In this document: positions 16,100 through 32,444 of the stretch, piece by piece
How the letters are laid out: every line of letters begins with the position of its first letter
Position numbering within the stretch: the first letter of the stretch is position 1
Source: a phage
Reading direction: 5' to 3' (one strand)
DNA length: 32,908 nucleotides
Assembly: GCA_021421665.1 (NCBI GenBank)
Contig: GCA_021421665.1_4698.1
Notes under the pieces: model-generated
The model's database searches: none
The model's input: only the letters and a program-made list of their open reading frames with translations
What the model was told of the DNA's origin: nothing
Made by a program: the position numbers and the translations under genes

Positions 16100-18504
16100 T
16101 GGAAGTACAAGGTTCATTAGGTAGACAAATCCAAGGCATAAGCCAGCAACCTCCAGCAGTGCGCTTAGATGGTCAGTGTACGGCTATGGTCAACATGGTC
16201 CCTGACGTAGTGAACGGAACACAATCCCGCATGGGTACAACTCACATTGCAAAGGTACTTGATGCAGGCACTGATGATATGGCTACTCATCATTATCGCA
16301 GGGGTGATGGTGATGAGGAGTATTTCTTTACTTTAAAGAAAGGACAAGTACCTGAAATCTTCGATAAGTATGGGCGTAAATGTAATGTAGCTTCTCAAGA
16401 TGCACCTATGACATATCTCAATGAAGTGGTTAACCCAAGAGAAGATGTGCAGTTCATGACTATTGCAGATGTGACATTTATGCTTAATCGTCGAAAGGTA
16501 GTTCGCACAAGGGAAGATCGTTCCCCTAATGTAGGTGCTACAGCTTTAGTCTTTTGCGCTTATGGTCAATATGGTACTATATATCAAATCATTATTAACG
16601 GTGCGGTGGCAGCAGAATATCGCACTAAAGATGGGGGAAGTGCAGACCACGTAGAGACAATACGAACAGAGGTTATAGCAGAACAGTTGTTTGTTAAGCT
16701 ACAGCAATGGTCCGGTGTAAGTGCATATGATGTATATCGAATGGGGACCACTATCGTTATCACCAGTAAATCCGGTGATACAGAGTTCACAGTAAACACA
16801 GAGGATGGTGCTAAAGGAAAAGATTTAGTTGCCATTAAATACAAGGTTAGCTCCACTGATCTTTTACCCAGTAAAGCGCCGGAAGGTTATAAAGTACAAA
16901 TATGGCCCACTGGAAGTAAACCTGAATCACGTTACTGGCTACAAGCCGAGAAGTCAGAGGGAAACCTTGTTACATGGAAAGAGACTATAGCTGCCGATGT
17001 TAAACTTGGTTTTGATAAAGGAACCATGCCTTACATTATTGAACGCACAGGAATCATTGATGGTATTGCGCAGTTTAGGATTAGACAAGGCGATTGGGAG
17101 GACCGCAAGGTAGGCGATGACCTTACTAACCCCATGCCCTCCTTCATTGATGATGAAGTTCCTCAGAAAATTGGTGGTATGTTTATGGTACAGAACCGCT
17201 TGTGCTTTACGGCAGGTGAAGCAGTCATTGCATCTCGTACTTCTTACTTCTTTGATTTCTTCCGATATACGGTGATCTCTGCTCTGGCCACAGACCCTTT
17301 CGACATCTTCTCCGATGCAAGTGAGGTTTATCAATTAAAACATGCAGTAACTCTTGACGGAGCTACGGTATTGTTCTCTGATAAATCCCAGTTCATCTTG
17401 CCGGGAGATAAGTCACTAGAGAAGGCTAATGCTTTACTTAAACCAGTAACAACTTTTGAAGTAAACAATAAGGTTAAGCCTGTTGCCACTGGTGAATCTG
17501 TGATGTTCGCTGCAAGTGATGGTGCATACTCTGGTGTGCGAGAGTTCTATACTGATTCTTATAGTGACACTAAGAAGGCACAGGCAATCACTAGCCATGT
17601 GAATAAACTCATTGAAGGCAACATTATAGGCATGGAGTCTAGTACGAATGTGAATAGACTACTTGTTACGACGGATAAGCATCGTAATATAATCTACTGT
17701 TATGACTGGCTATGGCAGGGCACAGATCGTGTTCAATCGGCTTGGCATATATGGGAGTGGCCTTTGGGTACAAAGGTGCGAGGTATGTTTTATTCTGGTG
17801 AACTGCTTTATCTGCTTCTTGAGAGAGGCAATGGTGTATATCTGGAGAAGATGGACACTGGTGATGCACTTACCTACGGTTTAAGTGATCGTATTAGAAT
17901 GGATAGGCAGGCAGAGTTGGTCTTCAACTATTTCAAAGCAGAAGATGAATGGATCTCTGAACCACTACCTTGGACCCCCACCCACCCAGAATTGTTGGAT
18001 TGTATCCTAATAGAGGGCTGGAACCCATATGTTGGAGGCTCTTTCTTATTCAGGTATAATTCCAGTAATAACACACTGTCTACAACTTTTGATATGCATG
18101 ATGGTGATCACGTAAAAGCAAAGGTTATTGTTGGACAACTTTACCACCAAGAGTTTGAACCAACACCTGTGGTTATCAGGGACAATCAAGACCGCGTATC
18201 ATATATTGATGTGCCTGTTGTGGGGTTGGTTCACCTCAACCTTGATATGTATCCCGATTTCTTAGTGGAAGTTAAGAATGTGAAGAGTGGTAAAGTGCGC
18301 AGAGTATTAGCGTCTAACCGCATAGGTGGTGCTCTCAACAATACAGTAGGTTATGTTAAACCTAGGGAAGGTGTCTTCAAGTTCCCACTGAGAGTTAAGA
18401 GCACTGATGTTGTTTATCGTATTATTGTAGAGTCGCCTCACACATTCCAGCTTCGTGATATTGAATGGGAGGGGAGTTATAATCCAACCAAGAGGAGGGT
18501 CTAA
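16099..18504 (+). CDS. tail tubular protein B (T7 gp12-like)
   Basis: N-terminus MEVQGSLGRQIQGISQQPPAVRLDGQ resembles recalled T7 gp12 MALISQSIKNLKGGISQQPDILRYPDQ; 801 aa; start overlaps upstream stop. Confidence 0.9.
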   Translation: MEVQGSLGRQIQGISQQPPAVRLDGQCTAMVNMVPDVVNGTQSRMGTTHIAKVLDAGTDDMATHHYRRGDGDEEYFFTLKKGQVPEIFDKYGRKCNVASQDAPMTYLNEVVNPREDVQFMTIADVTFMLNRRKVVRTREDRSPNVGATALVFCAYGQYGTIYQIIINGAVAAEYRTKDGGSADHVETIRTEVIAEQLFVKLQQWSGVSAYDVYRMGTTIVITSKSGDTEFTVNTEDGAKGKDLVAIKYKVSSTDLLPSKAPEGYKVQIWPTGSKPESRYWLQAEKSEGNLVTWKETIAADVKLGFDKGTMPYIIERTGIIDGIAQFRIRQGDWEDRKVGDDLTNPMPSFIDDEVPQKIGGMFMVQNRLCFTAGEAVIASRTSYFFDFFRYTVISALATDPFDIFSDASEVYQLKHAVTLDGATVLFSDKSQFILPGDKSLEKANALLKPVTTFEVNNKVKPVATGESVMFAASDGAYSGVREFYTDSYSDTKKAQAITSHVNKLIEGNIIGMESSTNVNRLLVTTDKHRNIIYCYDWLWQGTDRVQSAWHIWEWPLGTKVRGMFYSGELLYLLLERGNGVYLEKMDTGDALTYGLSDRIRMDRQAELVFNYFKAEDEWISEPLPWTPTHPELLDCILIEGWNPYVGGSFLFRYNSSNNTLSTTFDMHDGDHVKAKVIVGQLYHQEFEPTPVVIRDNQDRVSYIDVPVVGLVHLNLDMYPDFLVEVKNVKSGKVRRVLASNRIGGALNNTVGYVKPREGVFKFPLRVKSTDVVYRIIVESPHTFQLRDIEWEGSYNPTKRRV

Positions 18505-19232
18505 TGGCTATAGGTTCAGCCGTTATGGCTGGTATGTCTTCTATTGGCAGTATGTTTGCAGGTAGTGGTGCAGCAGCCGCTGCTGGAGGGACTGCCGCAA
18601 CAGTAGGTGGCGGAGGTTTACTAGGTTCCGTGGGAGGTTTCCTAAGTGGTTCCACTGGTGGCTTCTCCAATGCAGGCTTGCTTAGTGCAGGTATGCAAGG
18701 TCTAGGGCTTATAGGTAACCTTTTTGGTGGAAGGGATGAAGCCAAAGCTATGAAGAGGGCTCAGGAGGAGCAATGGCGGCAGCAGTTAATTGCTACGCAG
18801 GAGGCATACAAAACAGTGGCAGATGCAGAACGCTCTGCTGCTAAACAGTACCATGCCGACGCAATAAGTAATCAGGCTTCTCTGCTACAGCAGCGAGCAC
18901 AGGTTGCATTGCTTGCTGGTGCTACTGGTACTGGTGGTAACTCTGTGTCTTCTATGCTAAACGACTTAGCAGCAGAAGGCGGCAGGAACCAGAGTACAAT
19001 TATTGATAACTATGAGAATCAGAAGATTAACTTCACTAATCAGCTTAAGTCTATTCAGCGTGGCGGACAGATGCAAATGCGTGAGTTTAAGAAGCCTTCT
19101 GCTGTAAGCACCTTGGTTCAAGGTATCCCGAGTCTGGCTTCTGCCTATGTAACAGGTAGTAAATCGGGTATGGCATTAGGTAAAGCATTAACTGATTCTC
19201 GTACCTATTCATCTGGAACAAGAGGTATTTAA
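18504..19232 (+). CDS. internal virion protein (gp14-like)
   Basis: 242 aa with Gly/Ala-rich N-terminus and Gln-rich helical region; translationally coupled within the structural block. Confidence 0.65.
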   Translation: MAIGSAVMAGMSSIGSMFAGSGAAAAAGGTAATVGGGGLLGSVGGFLSGSTGGFSNAGLLSAGMQGLGLIGNLFGGRDEAKAMKRAQEEQWRQQLIATQEAYKTVADAERSAAKQYHADAISNQASLLQQRAQVALLAGATGTGGNSVSSMLNDLAAEGGRNQSTIIDNYENQKINFTNQLKSIQRGGQMQMREFKKPSAVSTLVQGIPSLASAYVTGSKSGMALGKALTDSRTYSSGTRGI

Positions 19233-22180
19233 TGGCAATTGAGCGACAAGCAGTACAAGGTCTGCCACAAGTGCAGGCCACTTCTCCTAATGTCATGACC
19301 TTTGCACCTCAGCGAGTTGGAGGTGTGGAGGCTGGCGTGGCTTCTACCTCCGGTAGTCGATTTATCGAAGACCTTATTCGAGCAGCCAGCAGTGTAGCTG
19401 ATGTTACCACTGGTATCCTTAATCAGAAGATTGAGGAAGATAAGGTTGTTCAAATGGAACGGGCATATAATGGACTGATGCCTTCTGAGGATGCAACTCG
19501 TGGCGGCGCTCGTGCTAACATGCTTGTCAAGGCTCAACTGCTGGCAAATGACGAAGCAGCACGGATGAAGGATATGGCTACTCGTTTCCAAGGAACGGAT
19601 GATGAGTGGACACAACTCATGGTTGATTCTCGTAATGAGATGCAGAATAAGCTGTTCCAGCAATACCCAGAGCTGCAAGGTGACAAAGATACAATGCGTA
19701 TGGTCACTAACGTCTTCCAAGAGCAGCAGCCTCAGATTTGGGCTACACGAACACAGCATAAACTTGACCGGGAACAGGCAGACCGTGAAGATACCTTTGA
19801 TGGGCGAGTGGCTTCTACTTGGGATTCCAGCATCGACCCAGAAGCCTCTGGTTATGCTTTACAGGAAAGAATCCGCGAAGGACTGACACAGGGCTTACTT
19901 CCTGAGCAGATGCACAAGAAGCTGGTGGCGCGGGCTATTTCACTTGCTCAGGGTGGTGATATCAGCATGGCTGAAGCCTTGAAGTACGTGAAGGACGATA
20001 AGGGTGTTTCTGTCTATGCTAAGAATCCGCAGCTTATCACAGCTATCACTAACGGTAATGCAGTTTGGGCTAGGAATAATGTTGCTGATGTGACTCGCAT
20101 GTCTTTTGAAGTCAAAGAATCCTATCTTGCAGGTGACTTGACGGATGAAGAATTACTGGAGCGAGCACAGCACATTAATAGCCTGACAGGGAACTCTGTT
20201 TTCTCTAATCCAGAACTAGAAGCATTGATGCGCCAACGAGCTAAGCAGAATGCAGAGCTAGGTGCAATGCAGGATATGCGACGTGAACTTTACTCTGACC
20301 GTATGACTGGCTTCCAAGGCAAGACGGATAAAGAGAAGAAAGCCTATGTTGATCTTATCAAGCAAGATAGTCAAACCTATGCAGACCAGCAAATCAAACA
20401 ACGAGGTGTGGACCCTTACAGCCAAGAGGCTGAAGCCATACGTGGTGAAGTAGAAGTACAGCGCCTGCAATTCATGAACTCAAAAGGGTTGGTGGATGAT
20501 ACCTTTGAATCCCGCATCAAAGCGATGGAGTCTTTGCTATCACCAGAGCACTTTGCTAAAGGTGAACCACAGGAATTACTGACCATTCGTAAATTGTGGG
20601 AGCAGCTACCTGAAGAGAGCCGAGGTGTCTTTGGTGACACTGTAAACGGTTATATGGATAATTACTCTACTGCCTTACAAATGGGTGAGACGCCTTTGCA
20701 GGCTGCAAGGTTTGCACGTGAAGCACAGCAGAAATTCTCTCGTACTGAGAAAGAAACTAAGAAGTTCAACTCAGCTATTGGAGATGCATTGGATGTAGTA
20801 TCAGGTGCTGGCTGGTTCGATGGTAAGACAGAAGTGTCTGACTTAGGTAAAGCTATTGCAGAAGAAGAACTACGGGCTAAGGCTAATATGTTGTGGTCTA
20901 GCGGTATGCGTAACATGGATTCCATCAAGAAGGCTTTAATTACTTGGGGCAATAAACGTTACACTCAATCAGAAGATGCAAAGACTTCCGGTGGCTATTT
21001 CATTAAAGGTGATTACACTTCTGCATCTGATATGCTTATGTCAGTTGGGAAAGGCGTAAATCCTACCGATGTACCTCTGGCACTTGGTAGGTATGTAGAA
21101 ACACAGATGCCAGAATTGAAGAAGGAACTTCAAGAGTGGGAAACTAAAGATGATATATACATTGATTACAATGAACAGAAAGGTACTTTCGTGATTCGTG
21201 CTGGTGCAGCAGGTCGCCCTCTTTCTGGAGTAACCCCTATAACCTCTTTAGATACCACTTCACTGCTAGATTCTGCCTATCAGAAGAAAGTAGAAGAACG
21301 AGATAAAGGTGAGTATGTTCACCCGTATCGTACAGATATTGGTGCACAAGAACCTATGCCAGCTAAGCCAACTGCCAAAGATATTGGTAAGTTTGGCCTA
21401 GCTAACTTTCTCATGTCTTCTGCTTTCGCCTCTGGTGAGAATCTACCTTCTAACTTCGAAATTAACTATCGAGGAAATATGCAACAATTCTATGACAAGT
21501 TAGCTATGGATGAGAACAAAGACAAGGTTGGCTTTAATAATGCAACTGGTACTTTTACTCCATACAAAGATGCTCACGGTGAATCTATTGGTTATGGTCA
21601 CTTCTTGACGGAGGAAGAGAAGCGGAACGGGTACATTAAGATCGGAGATGAATTAGTCCCGTATCGAGGGTCTATGTCTCAGCTTACAGAGAGCAAAGCT
21701 CGTGCTCTTATGGAGCAAGACGCTAAGAAGCATGTGCCACCCACTCGTGACTGGAAGATTCCATTTGACCAGATGCATCCTGCACAGCAACGTGGTTTGA
21801 TGGACTTAACCTACAATCTAGGTAAAGGTGGAATCCAAAATGCACCACGTGCTCTTGCTGCATTCAAGGCGGGTAAACTTACTGAAGGCTTTATCGAAAT
21901 GCTTGGCACTGCATCTAGTGAAGGTAAGCGTATCCCTGGCCTACTGAAGCGACGCGCTGAGGCTTACAATATGGCATCTGCTGGTGGTGTACCTAAGATT
22001 ACCGAAGTAGAAACTCGTGAAGATGGTTCTATGTGGGTTAAGTTCGGTGGACCTATGCCAGCAGGTTCTGTCTCAGCGTGGACTCATAAACGTATTGGTG
22101 CGGATGGCTGGTATCAAGTTTATGAGGCTGCACCTACCAAGTTAGCTAAAGGCTCTAAAGTAGGTAAAGTTAAGTTGTAG
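19232..22180 (+). CDS. internal virion (ejection) protein with C-terminal T4-lysozyme-like (GH24) domain
   Basis: 982 aa; C-terminal block YKDAHGESIGYGHFLT...GLMDLTYNLGKGG resembles recalled T4 lysozyme YKDTEGYYTIGIGHLLT...AINMVFQMGETG. Confidence 0.8.
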   Translation: MAIERQAVQGLPQVQATSPNVMTFAPQRVGGVEAGVASTSGSRFIEDLIRAASSVADVTTGILNQKIEEDKVVQMERAYNGLMPSEDATRGGARANMLVKAQLLANDEAARMKDMATRFQGTDDEWTQLMVDSRNEMQNKLFQQYPELQGDKDTMRMVTNVFQEQQPQIWATRTQHKLDREQADREDTFDGRVASTWDSSIDPEASGYALQERIREGLTQGLLPEQMHKKLVARAISLAQGGDISMAEALKYVKDDKGVSVYAKNPQLITAITNGNAVWARNNVADVTRMSFEVKESYLAGDLTDEELLERAQHINSLTGNSVFSNPELEALMRQRAKQNAELGAMQDMRRELYSDRMTGFQGKTDKEKKAYVDLIKQDSQTYADQQIKQRGVDPYSQEAEAIRGEVEVQRLQFMNSKGLVDDTFESRIKAMESLLSPEHFAKGEPQELLTIRKLWEQLPEESRGVFGDTVNGYMDNYSTALQMGETPLQAARFAREAQQKFSRTEKETKKFNSAIGDALDVVSGAGWFDGKTEVSDLGKAIAEEELRAKANMLWSSGMRNMDSIKKALITWGNKRYTQSEDAKTSGGYFIKGDYTSASDMLMSVGKGVNPTDVPLALGRYVETQMPELKKELQEWETKDDIYIDYNEQKGTFVIRAGAAGRPLSGVTPITSLDTTSLLDSAYQKKVEERDKGEYVHPYRTDIGAQEPMPAKPTAKDIGKFGLANFLMSSAFASGENLPSNFEINYRGNMQQFYDKLAMDENKDKVGFNNATGTFTPYKDAHGESIGYGHFLTEEEKRNGYIKIGDELVPYRGSMSQLTESKARALMEQDAKKHVPPTRDWKIPFDQMHPAQQRGLMDLTYNLGKGGIQNAPRALAAFKAGKLTEGFIEMLGTASSEGKRIPGLLKRRAEAYNMASAGGVPKITEVETREDGSMWVKFGGPMPAGSVSAWTHKRIGADGWYQVYEAAPTKLAKGSKVGKVKL

Positions 22181-22244: not shown

Positions 22245-25200
22245 ATGGAACAAGATATTAAGACTAATTGGGCTGGATATGTCCAGTCTACTCCTGAGCC
22301 GTTTTCTATTGAGGCGGCTCCGGTATCGGCTCCTACGATACGCCAGCGTAATGAGTTACAAGAGCAAGTTCTTGAAGCTAAAGCGGACGCGGATATCTTA
22401 GGGGCCGTAGGTGCTGCCTTCCAGAATGAGTGGTTGGCATTCGGAGGTAAGAGGTGGTATGACCGTGCCACTGCTGATTTCCCACCTCAGCCTGACTTTG
22501 AAATCCAGCCAGATCGACGTGAAGCACTCCGCTTCAAATATGGCACAGATATGATGCAGAAAATCATAGAAGGAGTCAGATCCGAGGATGAGCTAAACTT
22601 CCGTATTCAGAATGCAGATGATGACCTTGAGCGTAACAAACGTATCGCTCAGGCAGGCTGGGTAGGATCTGTGGCAACGATTGGCGCTGCTGTGCTTGAC
22701 CCTGTGGGATGGGTTGCCTCTATCCCAACTGGCGGTGCAGCTAAGGTTGGACTTGTAGGGCGTGCTGTACGTGGTGCTGTCGCTGCTGGTGTGAGTAATG
22801 CCGCTATTGAGTCCGTATTAGTCCAAGGCGACATGACCCGTGATTTAGATGACATTATGGTAGCACTAGGCTCCGGTATGGCTATGGGTGGCGTCATTGG
22901 CGCTGTAGCGCGTGGTAGGGCCACTAAGCTCAGTGAGCAAGGGGATGACAGAGCGGCAAGCGTTGTGCGCAGTGCAGATGCAGGGGACCGCTATGTTCGC
23001 GCCGTTGCCGATGACAGTATCGGTGCGATGCGTGTTAAGGGCGCAGAGGTTCTCACTGAGGGTGCATTCGATATCCCCAGCAAAGGTGAAGATTTACTGA
23101 AAACCTTACAGCGAGAAGGTAATGCGATTGATATGACACCTCGCCGCTGGGCAGGAACTATGTCTGCCCTTGGTACTGTCGTGCATTCCTCTCAGGATGC
23201 AAGTATCCGAGGTCTTGGTGCTCGCCTGTTTGAATCTCCCCAAGGCTTAGGTATGCAGAAGGCATCTGCTAGTCTCATGCAGAATACTAACTTGAATCGC
23301 CTGAAGTCTGCCGATATGAACCGTTTTAATGATGGGTTTGATTTATGGCTTAAAGAGAATAACATCAATCCAGTGGCAGGGCATACCAACTCTCATTATA
23401 TACAGCAATACAATGAAAAGGTGTGGGAGGCAGTACGTATTGGCATGGACGAGTCTACACCTAAGTCTATCCGTATGGCGGCTGAGGGACAACAGACTAT
23501 GTACAGAGAGGCGCTGGCTTTACGTCAACGCTCTGGTGAAGCGGGGTTTGAAAAGGTAAAAGCTGACAACAAATATATGCCTGATATCTTTGATAGTATG
23601 AAAGCCAGAAGTCAATTTGCTATGCATGATAAAGAAGATATCATTGAGTTATTCTCTCGCGCTTACCAGAATGGCGCTCGTAAGATTCCAAAGGAAGCAG
23701 CAGATGAGATTGCACGAGCACAGGTAAATCGTGTTGCTGATGCTACCTTAACTGGACGGCTTAGTTTTGAAAAGGCAATGTCAGGTCAAACCAAGGCAGA
23801 GTATGAAGCTATCATGCGCAAGGCTGGCTTTAGTGATGAAGAGATTGAAAAGATGGTAGAAGCTCTGGATAACAAGGAAACCAGAGATAATATCTCTAAC
23901 CGAGCTAAGATGAGCCTAGGGTTAGATGTTACTCAAGAGTACAATGGCATTCGTATGCGTGATTTCATGAATACCAATGTGGAAGAGCTAACGGATAACT
24001 ATATGAAAGAGGCGGCAGGTGGTGCTGCATTGGCTCGCCAAGGTTTCTCTACCTATCAGGCGGCGCTTAATGCAATTGACCTTGTAGAACGAAATGCACG
24101 AAACGCCGCTAAGGATAGTAAAGCAAGCCTAGCCTTAGATGAAGAAATTCGACAGATGCGGGAAGGCATTCGTCTAATCATGGGCAAGTCTATTGATGCG
24201 GACCCTCAAGCGTTATCCACTAAAATGATGCGCCGTGGTCGTGATATAACGGGTGTACTCAGATTGGGCCAGATGGGGTTTGCACAGCTAGGCGAACTTG
24301 CTAACTTCATGGGTGAGTTTGGTGTTGCTGCAACCACTCTGGCTTTAGGTAAGCAATTCCGCTTCACCTCTAAGGCTTTGCGTAATGGCGATGGCTTCTT
24401 CCGAGATAAGAACTTGGCAGAAGTAGAGCGAATGGTAGGCTACATTGGTGAGGATAACTGGTTAACAACCAAGGGTGCACGTCCCGATGAGTTTGGTGAT
24501 GTAACCACAGTGCGAGGGATGATGGCCCACTTTGACCAATCCATGAACTCAATACGCCGTGCTCAGACAAACCTATCACTCTTCCGCATGGCTCAAGGTT
24601 CTCTGGAGCGAATGACTAATAGGCAAATAGCCCTATCTTTCATTGACCACCTTGAAGGTAAGAAGGTTATTCCTCAGAAGAAACTGGAGGAACTTGGTCT
24701 TACTCAAGAGTTCATGTCTAGTCTACAGAAGCACTACGATGCTAATTCTAAGGGTTCTGGTCTGCTTGGCTTCGATACCATGCCTTATGCAATGGGTGAA
24801 ACCTTAGCTAATGCTATCCGTCGTAAGTCTGGTTTAATTATTCAGCGTAACTTCATTGGTGATGAAGGTATTTGGATGAACAAAGCACTAGGTAAGACGT
24901 TTGCACAGCTTAAGTCATTCTCTCTGGTATCTGGTGAGAAGCAATTCGGCCGAGGTATCCGGCATGATAAGATCGGTCTAGCTAAGAAGACAGCCTTTGG
25001 CTTTGCTTTGGGTTCGATGGTGTATGCAGCGAAAGCCTATGTGAACTCTATCGGACGAGAAGACCAAGATGAATATCTTGAAGAGAAGTTATCGCCTAAA
25101 GGATTAGCCTTTGGTGCGATGGGCATGATGAGTACAACTGCTGTATTTAGTTTAGGTGGAGACTTCTTAGGCGGCCTAGGTGTTCTACCTTCTGAGTTAG

Positions 25201-25430
25201 TGCAATCCCGTTATGAGGCTGGCTTTCAGACTAAGGGTTTGATAGACCAAATACCATTAGTAGGTGTTGGTCAAGATGCATACCGTTTAGCAGATTCTAT
25301 AACTAAGTATGCAGAGGGTGATACAGATGGTGTAGATGTAGCACGTAGAGTTTTACGCTTAGTGCCACTGACTAATGTAATAGGTGTCCAAAACGCATTG
25401 CGTTATGGCTTAGATGAACTGGAGGACTGA
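22245..25430 (+). CDS. large internal virion / core protein (gp16-like)
   Basis: 1061 aa, largest gene of the block; GGAGG SD; Gly/Ala-rich segment suggests a membrane-interacting region; assignment by size and position. Confidence 0.75.
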   Translation: MEQDIKTNWAGYVQSTPEPFSIEAAPVSAPTIRQRNELQEQVLEAKADADILGAVGAAFQNEWLAFGGKRWYDRATADFPPQPDFEIQPDRREALRFKYGTDMMQKIIEGVRSEDELNFRIQNADDDLERNKRIAQAGWVGSVATIGAAVLDPVGWVASIPTGGAAKVGLVGRAVRGAVAAGVSNAAIESVLVQGDMTRDLDDIMVALGSGMAMGGVIGAVARGRATKLSEQGDDRAASVVRSADAGDRYVRAVADDSIGAMRVKGAEVLTEGAFDIPSKGEDLLKTLQREGNAIDMTPRRWAGTMSALGTVVHSSQDASIRGLGARLFESPQGLGMQKASASLMQNTNLNRLKSADMNRFNDGFDLWLKENNINPVAGHTNSHYIQQYNEKVWEAVRIGMDESTPKSIRMAAEGQQTMYREALALRQRSGEAGFEKVKADNKYMPDIFDSMKARSQFAMHDKEDIIELFSRAYQNGARKIPKEAADEIARAQVNRVADATLTGRLSFEKAMSGQTKAEYEAIMRKAGFSDEEIEKMVEALDNKETRDNISNRAKMSLGLDVTQEYNGIRMRDFMNTNVEELTDNYMKEAAGGAALARQGFSTYQAALNAIDLVERNARNAAKDSKASLALDEEIRQMREGIRLIMGKSIDADPQALSTKMMRRGRDITGVLRLGQMGFAQLGELANFMGEFGVAATTLALGKQFRFTSKALRNGDGFFRDKNLAEVERMVGYIGEDNWLTTKGARPDEFGDVTTVRGMMAHFDQSMNSIRRAQTNLSLFRMAQGSLERMTNRQIALSFIDHLEGKKVIPQKKLEELGLTQEFMSSLQKHYDANSKGSGLLGFDTMPYAMGETLANAIRRKSGLIIQRNFIGDEGIWMNKALGKTFAQLKSFSLVSGEKQFGRGIRHDKIGLAKKTAFGFALGSMVYAAKAYVNSIGREDQDEYLEEKLSPKGLAFGAMGMMSTTAVFSLGGDFLGGLGVLPSELVQSRYEAGFQTKGLIDQIPLVGVGQDAYRLADSITKYAEGDTDGVDVARRVLRLVPLTNVIGVQNALRYGLDELED

Positions 25431-26415: not shown

Positions 26416-26610
26416 GTGGTAGACTCAGATATCATCAATGATACGCTGAAGTGGGTTCCGGGTGGTATTGTAACCAGTACAACCCTCTTAGGTATCAGTT
26501 GGGAAAACTGGGTTTACATCTTAACCGCAATCTATACTATGTTGCAGATTGGGGAATGGGTATGGACCCGAGTTATAGGATGGAGGGAGAAGCGTGAGCG
26601 TACACAATAA
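26416..26610 (+). CDS. holin (T7 gp17.5-like)
   Basis: GTG start 7 nt after AGGAGG; 64 aa, one transmembrane segment; SWENWVYILTAIYTMLQIGEWV resembles recalled T7 gp17.5 SLNEWFYVAAIAYTVVQIGAKV. Confidence 0.8.
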   Translation: MVDSDIINDTLKWVPGGIVTSTTLLGISWENWVYILTAIYTMLQIGEWVWTRVIGWREKRERTQ

Positions 26611-28946: not shown

Positions 28947-29225
28947 ATGGCTAATGATTATAGTAGTCAACCATTAACAGGTAAGTCTAAGAGAAAGCAG
29001 GTACAACCTGTAAGTGAAGCACTAATGCTTCCGGTAATCCCAAAAGAGGAAGCTAGTAAGAAAAGCAATGTTATTAATGATGCCACCAAATCAGGTAAAC
29101 AGAAAGGGGCAATGGTATGCCTTGAAGTGGACGATGGTGTATTGAAGATTGCTATCGCGGTTGATGGCAAAGAAGATTCAGAGTGGAAGTTAGTGACAGT
29201 GGAACCCACTGTTACCCCAGCTTAA
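28947..29225 (+). CDS. hypothetical protein (92 aa), paralog A of a tandem pair
   Basis: AGGAGAGAGA SD; shares the block SGKQKGAMV-LE--D--L-IA-A and C-terminal VTPA with the next gene. Confidence 0.6.
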   Translation: MANDYSSQPLTGKSKRKQVQPVSEALMLPVIPKEEASKKSNVINDATKSGKQKGAMVCLEVDDGVLKIAIAVDGKEDSEWKLVTVEPTVTPA

Positions 29226-29243: not shown

Positions 29244-29528
29244 ATGGCTAAATATGGTGAAGGTTCTGTTACTGGTCAGGCTTTTCGAGTAAAAGCAGTA
29301 CAAACTATTGCAACGGCAATCCCTATGCCTGTTGTTAAAGAAGCAGACCTTAAGAGTAAAGATCACCCTATAAACATCAAACACCTGTCAGGTAAACAGA
29401 AAGGTGCAATGGTTGCTCTTGAGAAAGCGGACACAACCTTACATATTGCTGTTGCACGTGGTAGTGAACCAACAGACCCTTGGGATGTAACTGGTATGGA
29501 ATCGGACGCTGTTACTCCGGCAGGGTGA
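29244..29528 (+). CDS. hypothetical protein (94 aa), paralog B of a tandem pair
   Basis: GAGGAGGA SD; shares SGKQKGAMVALE and a VTPAG C-terminus with the preceding gene. Confidence 0.6.
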   Translation: MAKYGEGSVTGQAFRVKAVQTIATAIPMPVVKEADLKSKDHPINIKHLSGKQKGAMVALEKADTTLHIAVARGSEPTDPWDVTGMESDAVTPAG

Positions 29529-29532
29529 TACC

Positions 29533-29880
29533 ATGATGCTTAACAAATACTTCAAGCGTAAAGAGTTCGCTTGCCGTTGTGGATGCGGTACATCCACTGT
29601 TGATGCTGAGTTACTACAGGTAATCACAGATGTGCGTGAGCACTTTGGCGTACCTGTAGTTATCACCTCTGGTCATCGCTGCGTTAAGCACAATACCAGT
29701 GTAGGTGGGGCCAAGAACTCCATGCATCTTACAGGTAAGGCTGCTGATATTAAAGTATCTGGCATCTCACCTTCTGAAGTGCATAAGTATCTTACTGGCA
29801 AATACCAAGGTAAGTACGGCATTGGTAAGTATAATTCCTTCACGCACATTGATGTACGCGATGGGTGTGCACGATGGTAA
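29533..29880 (+). CDS. peptidase M15-family zinc peptidase, probable endolysin
   Basis: N-terminal EFACRCGCG and zinc-binding pattern SGHR...SMHLTGKAADI...THIDVRD; located in the lysis region. Confidence 0.75.
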   Translation: MMLNKYFKRKEFACRCGCGTSTVDAELLQVITDVREHFGVPVVITSGHRCVKHNTSVGGAKNSMHLTGKAADIKVSGISPSEVHKYLTGKYQGKYGIGKYNSFTHIDVRDGCARW

Positions 29881-30138: not shown

Positions 30139-30352
30139 TTTGCTTGAGGTGTTGGCAGGTCTTATTGGCCTGCTGCTTGCCGCTAAGAAGAAGAAAGAAG
30201 AGAAGGAGGCACAAAGTGAAGCGAATCATGTTAGCGACAACCCTGCTGATTGGTTCGCTGATCACTTCAGGGTGTCAGACGGCGTTACCAGAGAGTCAAA
30301 AGGTAAAGCCACTGAAGCCGACGCTGACGGAAGTGTACGAAGTGGACGATAA
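30131..30352 (+). CDS. putative i-spanin (Rz-like), short
   Basis: GTG start; N-terminal hydrophobic segment LLEVLAGLIGLLLAA followed by a charged region; overlaps the lipoprotein ORF in another frame. Only 73 aa, so uncertain. Confidence 0.4.
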   Translation: MNNLLEVLAGLIGLLLAAKKKKEEKEAQSEANHVSDNPADWFADHFRVSDGVTRESKGKATEADADGSVRSGR

Positions 30353-30425
30353 GGTCTGCTTTAGTAAGCCTGATGCTACAAAATTAGGTTTGTATATTCT
30401 TTCGCTAGAACGCGGTTACAAATAA
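30216..30425 (+). CDS. putative o-spanin (Rz1-like outer-membrane lipoprotein)
   Basis: Signal peptide with lipobox LITSGC after AAGGAGG (GTG 30216 or ATG 30228); Pro-rich mature region; begins inside the Rz-like ORF and extends past it. Confidence 0.55.
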   Translation: MKRIMLATTLLIGSLITSGCQTALPESQKVKPLKPTLTEVYEVDDKVCFSKPDATKLGLYILSLERGYK

Positions 30426-30477: not shown

Positions 30478-30548
30478 ATAGAGTGGCGATCATTTGGTCG
30501 CCTTTACTCAAGGTGCTCATGGTGGGCGCTTTAAGTAAAGGAGGAAAC

Positions 30549-32444
30549 ATGGCTCTAACTAGACTAACGTCAGCCTTGGTTAGTATCAAGTCTTCCGTGG
30601 TAGGTACTGTCAAGAGAACCATTGCTAACAAGTTTGACCTTGATTTATCTCTGGAGGATTTTGGTGCAGACCCAACTGGCAATACAGACTCTACCGCGGC
30701 TGTTATAGCAGCCCTTAGTAGTCGTAAACGTATAGTCCAAAAAGGTGGAGGTATCTACCGACTGGATGGCGCGGTTGTTGTCCCAACAGGTGATGTCCAT
30801 TTTGAAGGGGCAGGTATAGGCAAGACTGTCTTCAGATTCAACCACTTCACACAAGGTTTCAGACTTGGTGATGAGGCTGACTCAGGTAACAGGTATATTC
30901 ATGTCTTCCGCAAAGCCACTATTGAACGGCCAAACTATGCATCATACACTGGACAGATTAGCCCTAAATCTTTGTATATCTCAAACTCTAGAAACGGATT
31001 GGTAGAAGATATTGATCTGTCAGGTTCTATCGGTTACGGGATACAGTTTGATTATTCAGACACCTACGTAATGGTTCGCAGGTGTTATGTGCATGATCAT
31101 TTCGGTGGTAGCTCCGTGGCGGTTGGTACTGATGGTATCCACTTCTATCGAACAAAAGACTTCTGGGCTATTGAAAATACAGTGGCTCGTGTTGGTGACG
31201 ACGCAATCAGTTGTGGTACTTTTAACTTTGCCTACCCTGTGAGTAATGGTCATATCTTATTTAACAAGATATACAATACACAGGGCACCATCAAGATTTA
31301 CACCAAAGTATCTGGTGTTACAGTCAAGGGTAACTATATTGATGGGTCAGTACAGGGCGGTGTGTATATCACGAACGATGCAAACGCACCAGAAAACGCG
31401 GCTATTAATGACATTACAATAGAAGACAACAAGTTCTACAACATCTTCCCAAACGTGGAAACAAATATAGAGGCTGGACCTTTACGTATCCGCGGTTGGA
31501 AGGGTGGTGCTTGCTCTTTTAACAATATCATTTTCAAGGACAACTACTGCTCAAACACTTACGCTGGAATTAACTTTCTTGTTAACTCTGCCAACCAACG
31601 ACTCAGAAACCTCTATGTAGAGGGGAACATCTTCTTTGTTCAAGCCTTGGGTACAACAAACTCAAGATCTGCAATAATGCTACAGTGCTGTGATGAGAAC
31701 TTAGTTGTTCGCAATAATACCTTCAAAGATACATCTGGTGGTCTCTTGCAGATTGACGCTGTTGGTTCTGGTTTCACTGCAGAACCTTCATCCAATGGTA
31801 GGTTTACCATCACAGGCAACCAAGTGGAAGGATGGAACAAATCAGTAACGGTTGGTCGTAGTGCGCTACGCGGTATCTTCTTACGGCAAAACTTATATGA
31901 CTGCATTGTTGAGATAACCAATAACAAACTTCAATATCAGTACACTAGTGGCTCTGCCGCAAAAGGTCGTGCAGTTGAGACGGCTGGTGTTCACCCTGAT
32001 AGCAGGTTTGAGAACAACGTACTAGATGGTAATGTGTTGTTTAACTCAAACAATGGCGGATACTTTGGTTCAAACAAAACCATAGCTGACCTAACAAGTG
32101 CACCGGGGCCGCGCTCTGGCACACACCAGCGTGGTAGCTCTTTGAGGACAGAAGTACCTACAGCTACAAGGTACAACGAGTATCTGATAGTTAAATCTGG
32201 AACTCTTGATACTATTTCCGCAACAGTAACAATAGACTCTGGTTCATACTCAGGGACTATAACATCTGGCTCATTACTACCCGGTGTATATGTGACAGTC
32301 GCAGGGTTGTCTGATGTGTTACGTGTATTGCGTGTGGCTGGTAGCTCTGTGTTATTTGACTCAAAGGCATCAGCTACTGTAACAGATGCTGCAACAGTAA
32401 ACTCCAACCCAACATGGTTGGCCCGTTCATTAGTACCAGCATAG
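30549..32444 (+). CDS. tailspike protein 1 (631 aa), probable beta-helix capsule depolymerase
   Basis: AAAGGAGG SD before ATG 30549 (ORF-track start 30483 has none); N-terminal DFGADPTGNTD motif typical of pectate-lyase-fold tailspikes; repetitive Asn/Gly/Thr-rich beta-strand-like sequence. Confidence 0.8.
   Translation: MALTRLTSALVSIKSSVVGTVKRTIANKFDLDLSLEDFGADPTGNTDSTAAVIAALSSRKRIVQKGGGIYRLDGAVVVPTGDVHFEGAGIGKTVFRFNHFTQGFRLGDEADSGNRYIHVFRKATIERPNYASYTGQISPKSLYISNSRNGLVEDIDLSGSIGYGIQFDYSDTYVMVRRCYVHDHFGGSSVAVGTDGIHFYRTKDFWAIENTVARVGDDAISCGTFNFAYPVSNGHILFNKIYNTQGTIKIYTKVSGVTVKGNYIDGSVQGGVYITNDANAPENAAINDITIEDNKFYNIFPNVETNIEAGPLRIRGWKGGACSFNNIIFKDNYCSNTYAGINFLVNSANQRLRNLYVEGNIFFVQALGTTNSRSAIMLQCCDENLVVRNNTFKDTSGGLLQIDAVGSGFTAEPSSNGRFTITGNQVEGWNKSVTVGRSALRGIFLRQNLYDCIVEITNNKLQYQYTSGSAAKGRAVETAGVHPDSRFENNVLDGNVLFNSNNGGYFGSNKTIADLTSAPGPRSGTHQRGSSLRTEVPTATRYNEYLIVKSGTLDTISATVTIDSGSYSGTITSGSLLPGVYVTVAGLSDVLRVLRVAGSSVLFDSKASATVTDAATVNSNPTWLARSLVPA

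Follow-up and report, generated by a model that had tools for sequence, protein, structure and literature searches.

Introduction

The packaging of internal core proteins in the virion, their ejection and the periplasmic tunnel that they form have been described for T7 and for the phiKMV-like phage Ar-KM (PMC8954989; preprint 10.64898/2026.05.18.726046, a cryo-EM study of Ar-KM). In T7, local cleavage of peptidoglycan is presumed to fall to one of these ejected core proteins, gp16, which carries an SLT lytic transglycosylase domain at its N-terminus, whereas in K1E and K1-5 the lysozyme activity lies on gp35, a difference that has been termed domain swapping (PMC8954989). SP6 gp36 and K1-5 YP_654136.1 are entered in Table 2 of PMC5380687 as muralytic virion-associated lysozymes, with credit to Moak and Molineux 2004. 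A recent survey counted 127 genomes of Autographivirales in which an ejection protein contains a peptidoglycan hydrolase. In 67.7% of them the domain is N-terminal in the gp16-like protein, while the gp15-like protein carries it C-terminally in 24.4% and centrally in 7.9% (10.64898/2026.05.18.726046). phiKMV gp36 and Ar-KM gp42 are likewise gp15-position proteins with a C-terminal lysozyme-like domain (see also the same preprint).

Here we describe a locus of this kind in a phage contig (GCA_021421665.1_4698.1), the whole 32,908-nucleotide stretch of which is referred to as the window. A first-pass annotation had proposed a T4-lysozyme-like domain at the C-terminus of an internal virion protein. 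The architecture is already known, as it has been annotated, reviewed and reportedly assayed on virions of orthologues. The same gene order and annotation are found for K1-5 gp35, K1E gp35 and SP6 gp36 (Molineuxvirinae). The locus is compared with these systems below at the level of domains and individual residues.

Results and Discussion

The window carries the late module of a K1-5-like coliphage

Comparison of the 982-aa open reading frame at the center of this study with phage records identified the window as coming from a K1-5-like coliphage. Full-length matches were found in 65 records, 62 of them at 91-93% nucleotide identity and nearly all Vectrevirus. Vectrevirus comprises the K1-5/K1E-like coliphages within the Autographiviridae, subfamily Molineuxvirinae. 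Pfam and PHROG searches showed that the reading frame is surrounded by the canonical late module of the T7 supergroup: DNA polymerase, exonuclease and ligase; portal, scaffold and capsid proteins; tail tube A and a nozzle protein; three internal virion proteins; and a tail-fibre adaptor, holin, terminase, M15 peptidase, spanin and tailspike.

Two other features of the window deserve mention. The tailspike (653 aa, 30483-32444, plus strand) contains a right-handed beta-helix. When 50,697 phage records were compared, the nearest protein came from the Klebsiella jumbo phage vB_KpM_FBKp24, with no more than 50.8% amino acid identity. Those Vectrevirus records whose gp35 gene is 91-93% identical at the nucleotide level contain no close match to the tailspike. 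The depolymerase or host-range module appears, from these sequence comparisons, to have been swapped. Two adjoining reading frames of about 93 aa (28947-29225 and 29244-29528, both plus strand) are visibly paralogous, with the common motifs SGKQKGAMV...L.IA(I/V)A. Neither has a Pfam match; they may encode small decoration or minor structural proteins.

The lysozyme domain is carried by a gp15-like ejection protein

The 982-aa protein (19232..22180, plus strand) occupies the gp15 position among the ejection proteins and is the orthologue of K1-5 gp35 (YP_654136.1) and SP6 gp36. It aligns with K1-5 gp35 without gaps at 97% identity (955/982), and the RefSeq label of that protein, "lysozyme domain-containing protein," is also the name of phrog_4290, which our protein matches over its full length. 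The 27 substitutions that separate it from K1-5 gp35 include only three in the lysozyme domain (N769K, T860S and A871S), none at a putative catalytic position. SP6 gp36 is more distant, with its last 236 aa about 63% identical to the 982-aa protein.

The gene sits in the structural module between homologues of T7 gp14 and gp16. Immediately upstream, a 242-aa internal virion (ejection) protein (18504..19232, plus strand) matches PF24072 T7_gp14 (E 2e-32) and phrog_805, internal virion protein (E 5e-52). Downstream lies a 1061-aa gp16-like ejection protein (22245..25430, plus strand; BLASTP and PHROG), discussed below. The resulting three-gene ejection module is the same as that of T7.

Resemblance to T7 gp15 itself was visible in the predicted structure. 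In the full-length AlphaFold model (pLDDT 76), residues 1-90 are predicted to be disordered and residues 90-690 form a mostly helical body (19499..21301, plus strand) with a T7 gp15-like predicted fold. The best Foldseek matches in the PDB were T7 core proteins: 9jyy_G (E 1e-5), 6yt5_A (2.5e-5) and 7eyb_A (4e-3), and the gp15 identity of chains 7eyb_A, 6ysz_A and 6yt5_A was confirmed. For 6ysz_A the TM-score was 0.50 when normalized to the target, and the other global TM-scores were low, at 0.16-0.29, as expected where a protein has several conformations. At the sequence level, hhalign found no similarity between T7 gp15 and a 31-sequence family alignment of the protein (probability 0.1%, E 0.45), no Pfam or PHROG entry linked the two, and a search of PDB sequences returned no close homologue with a solved structure. 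The first-pass annotation had called the host protein gp15-like, and this description draws its support from where the gene lies and from the predicted fold, rather than from sequence.

Between the body and the lysozyme domain is a linker (window 21302-21466, residues ~691-745) that is unusually conserved and modelled at moderate confidence only. Its invariant residues in the 31-sequence alignment are T714, A715, G722, F726, S729, G735, L738, P739, N741 and E743. The linker may act as a hinge, or make contacts within the tunnel once this is assembled.

A GH24 domain of a distinct subtype

Residues ~746-915 (21467..21976, plus strand) constitute a GH24 (T4-lysozyme-like) muramidase domain, an assignment based on profile matches and predicted fold. 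A match to a GH24 profile had been named beforehand as the test of the proposed domain, and it was found: PF00959 Phage_lysozyme matches residues 776-910 with E 7.6e-10 and 39.6 bits, above the cut-off of 22.3. The family profile in turn retrieved T4 lysozyme (T4L) from the PDB with E 2e-7 to 2e-6 (hmmsearch), and the predicted domain has the two-lobed alpha+beta fold of T4L. No meaningful match was obtained with NCBIfam. The motifs on which the first-pass annotation had relied are all in frame: MDENKDK at residues 759-765, YKDAHGESIGYGHFLT at 778-793 and LMDLTYNLGKGG at 856-867.

The number of relatives recovered depended on the search. A word-indexed search gave 3 matches with the C-terminal domain alone and 29 homologues with the full-length query; when 1.84 billion representatives were searched exhaustively with a profile, 748 relatives were recovered. 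Among these 748 are free-standing proteins of 167-210 aa that start just before the motif formed by E761 and N762, which we call E-N (P0099 and others).

This motif marks a distinct GH24 subtype (window 21512-21586), in which the Glu is followed by Asn, not Gly, and a longer spacer precedes the (S/T)xGYGH strand. The subtype occurs both as free-standing 167-210-aa proteins and as the C-terminal domain of proteins of about 900-990 aa (P0099, P0100, P0105, P0109 and P0058).

Compared with the GH24 endolysins T4 lysozyme (gpe), P22 gp19, DLP12 RrrD and phage 21 R21, which are free enzymes, the domain described here is the C-terminal part of an ejected structural protein. It also differs from them in the Glu-Asn pair, in a small hairpin of about 10 additional residues before the Asp strand, in a Ser in place of T26, and in a C-terminal tail of about 60 aa.

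Putative catalytic residues

The catalytic core of T4L consists of E11, D20 and T26, and we looked for its equivalents using a family alignment, built from 31 homologues over their full length, with identities of 38-98%. A MAFFT alignment that included canonical GH24 sequences misaligned the N-termini, and the Glu equivalence was instead read from a global hhalign alignment, pairwise profile comparisons and the secondary structure of the models. Every local alignment leaves the catalytic Glu outside, as those with T4L start at K16 and the Pfam alignment starts at profile position 9. The assignment of E761 (codon 21512..21514, plus strand) therefore rests on its invariance, its position in a helix and a low-confidence global alignment.

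In all, four observations favor E761. The E761-N762 pair is invariant in 31/31 sequences. In both models, E761 forms the C-terminal end of helix 746-762, just as E11 ends helix 1 of T4L; a short additional hairpin (768-775) comes next, leading into the YKD strand. The global hhalign alignment, at low confidence, pairs D760-E761 with D10-E11 of T4L at the cost of two 5-residue insertions. The alignment with P0163, a canonical relative that has FEG as its motif and the Glu-Asp spacing of T4L, runs from the strand on at 98.7% probability and thereby implies the same insertion of about 10 residues after the Glu. E761 is thus very likely the equivalent of T4L E11 and the putative catalytic Glu, in agreement with the suggestion that an acidic residue of MDENKDK takes this role.

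The other two positions could be read directly from alignments. D780 (codon 21569..21571, plus strand) corresponds to T4L D20 in both phmmer and hmmsearch alignments (YKDAHG against YKDTEG) and is kept in at least 90% of the family. S785 (codon 21584..21586, plus strand) corresponds to T26 in pairwise and family alignments (SIGYGH against TIGIGH). Ser, Thr or Asn occupies this position across the family, and the neighboring position 784 is variable. By sequence, Ser is a conservative hydroxyl replacement at the T26 position. The idea that the block mirrors the T4L core was supported, with two corrections: the T26 position is Ser, and Glu and Asp are separated by 19 residues, not 9. The catalytic set is likely E761 as the acid, D780 as the base and S785 for water positioning.

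A conserved tail follows the lysozyme domain

The lysozyme domain is followed by a beta-rich C-terminal tail of about 60 aa (residues 918-982, 21983..22177, plus strand), recognized from the model and from conservation. It is modelled with pLDDT above 90 and has strands at 923-928, 934-938, 960-964 and 978-981. The conserved residues are P921, I923, DGSM at 931-934, F938 and G959-W960. No Pfam match was obtained for the tail, either with single sequences or with alignment members, and a profile search of PDB sequences returned none. The pair of lysozyme domain and tail also occurs in proteins of about 350 aa with acidic, probably disordered N-termini (P0043, P0050, P0059, P0061 and P0071). A tentative suggestion, which we consider less likely than not, is that the tail is an undescribed accessory module, such as a peptidoglycan-anchoring or gp16-docking element. 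Within the ejectosome, a module of this kind might hold the lysozyme in place or gate it.

The gp16 homologue and the phiKMV-like architecture

BLASTP with T7 gp16 aligned residues 89-224 of the 1061-aa protein with T7 275-411, an offset of about 186 residues, and residues 881-1007 with T7 1100-1253. Similarly, the alignment of phrog_342 to this protein begins only at profile position 162. A search for SLT up to E 0.1 gave no match in the 1061-aa protein, with T7 gp16 as a positive control (SLT, E 1.7e-31). Together, the alignment offset and the missing SLT match mean that the gp16 homologue is without the N-terminal lytic transglycosylase domain. Relative to T7, the enzyme is therefore GH24 instead of SLT (PF01464), its carrier is gp15-like instead of gp16, and it sits at the C- instead of the N-terminus. 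The first-pass annotation was right to place the T7 transglycosylase at the gp16 N-terminus and to see here a different architecture for the same task, though this is not a discovery (PMC8954989, PMC5380687 and the 2026 preprint).

We also considered phiKMV gp36 as a close relative and rejected it. The layout is the same, and the helical body gives a weak profile match to that of the 982-aa protein (hhalign probability 58%, E 1e-4). The lysozyme domains were not aligned by hhalign, phiKMV gp36 had no Pfam match, and it was absent from the tblastn matches of the C-terminal domain; any relationship between the two enzymatic domains is therefore very distant at best.

Proposed role in entry

We propose that the GH24 domain on the gp15-equivalent ejection protein cuts peptidoglycan at entry, and we consider this explanation, taken as a whole, very probable. 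The protein would be packaged inside the capsid, in the core stack on the portal, alongside the gp14-like and gp16-like proteins. On infection, ejection through the tail would make it the periplasmic part of the DNA conduit, a tunnel in which the lysozyme domains would face the peptidoglycan. Local hydrolysis of the MurNAc-GlcNAc bond would then allow the conduit to reach the inner membrane, the job that the SLT domain would do in T7. We infer the timing, the location in the ejectosome and the conditional requirement by analogy with T7 and phiKMV-like phages. T7 mutants in the gp16 lytic transglycosylase show delayed entry when the host cells are in stationary phase or at 20 C. Presence in the virion and muralytic activity are carried over from the literature on the 97%-identical K1-5 gp35 and on SP6 gp36; our literature search found no experiment on this exact phage.

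The domain could instead be chiefly, or also, a lysis enzyme, with one muralytic gene serving both entry and end-of-cycle lysis. Such a lysis role was once suggested for SP6 (PMC2680503), and according to the literature T7 gp16 is able to evolve so that lysis is restored. However, the window has separate candidates for lysis: a Peptidase_M15_3 endolysin (29533..29880, plus strand; Pfam PF08291, E 2.2e-33) beside an Rz-like spanin lipoprotein with the lipobox LITSGC (within 30144..30425; phrog_8971), and a T7-type holin (26416..26610) between the tail-fibre adaptor and the small terminase. The SP6 equivalent of the endolysin, gp46, is now regarded as a putative endolysin (PMC4837284), and the lysozyme here is fused to a structural body of about 740 aa. 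Because a separate endolysin is present, the virion lysozyme need not serve lysis; an end-of-cycle role looks unnecessary, and we regard this alternative as unlikely. As a separate observation, the lysis genes are split, with the endolysin and spanin about 3 kb downstream of the holin, past the large terminase.

Two further alternatives concern the chemistry of the domain. The same glycosidic bond might be cut as by a lytic transglycosylase, giving a 1,6-anhydro product, and not by hydrolysis. Single substitutions at T26 can switch T4L to transglycosylation, the family has Ser, Thr or Asn at position 785, and T7 uses a lytic transglycosylase for the same task; even so, we judge this very unlikely. 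Also very unlikely in our view is a catalytically inactive lysozyme-fold module that the ejectosome would keep for structure or for binding peptidoglycan. The Asn in place of the usual Gly after the Glu, the displacement of that Glu by an insertion of about 10 residues, and the Ser at the T26 position could be read in this way. Against it, the invariance of E761 and the retention of D780 extend down to 38% identity, the E-N motif is shared with the free-standing, enzyme-like relatives, and muralytic activity of the SP6 and K1-5 proteins is reported in reviews. Hydrolysis of peptidoglycan at entry by an active GH24 muramidase is thus our preferred reading.

The value of this result lies in a residue-level assignment of the likely catalytic set, consisting of E761, D780 and S785, and of the insertion of about 10 residues after the Glu. 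Two loose ends are the unannotated tail and, away from this gene, the tailspike without close Vectrevirus relatives. The locus confirms textbook mosaicism, in which peptidoglycan cutting is placed on different podovirus ejection proteins and drawn from different enzyme families.
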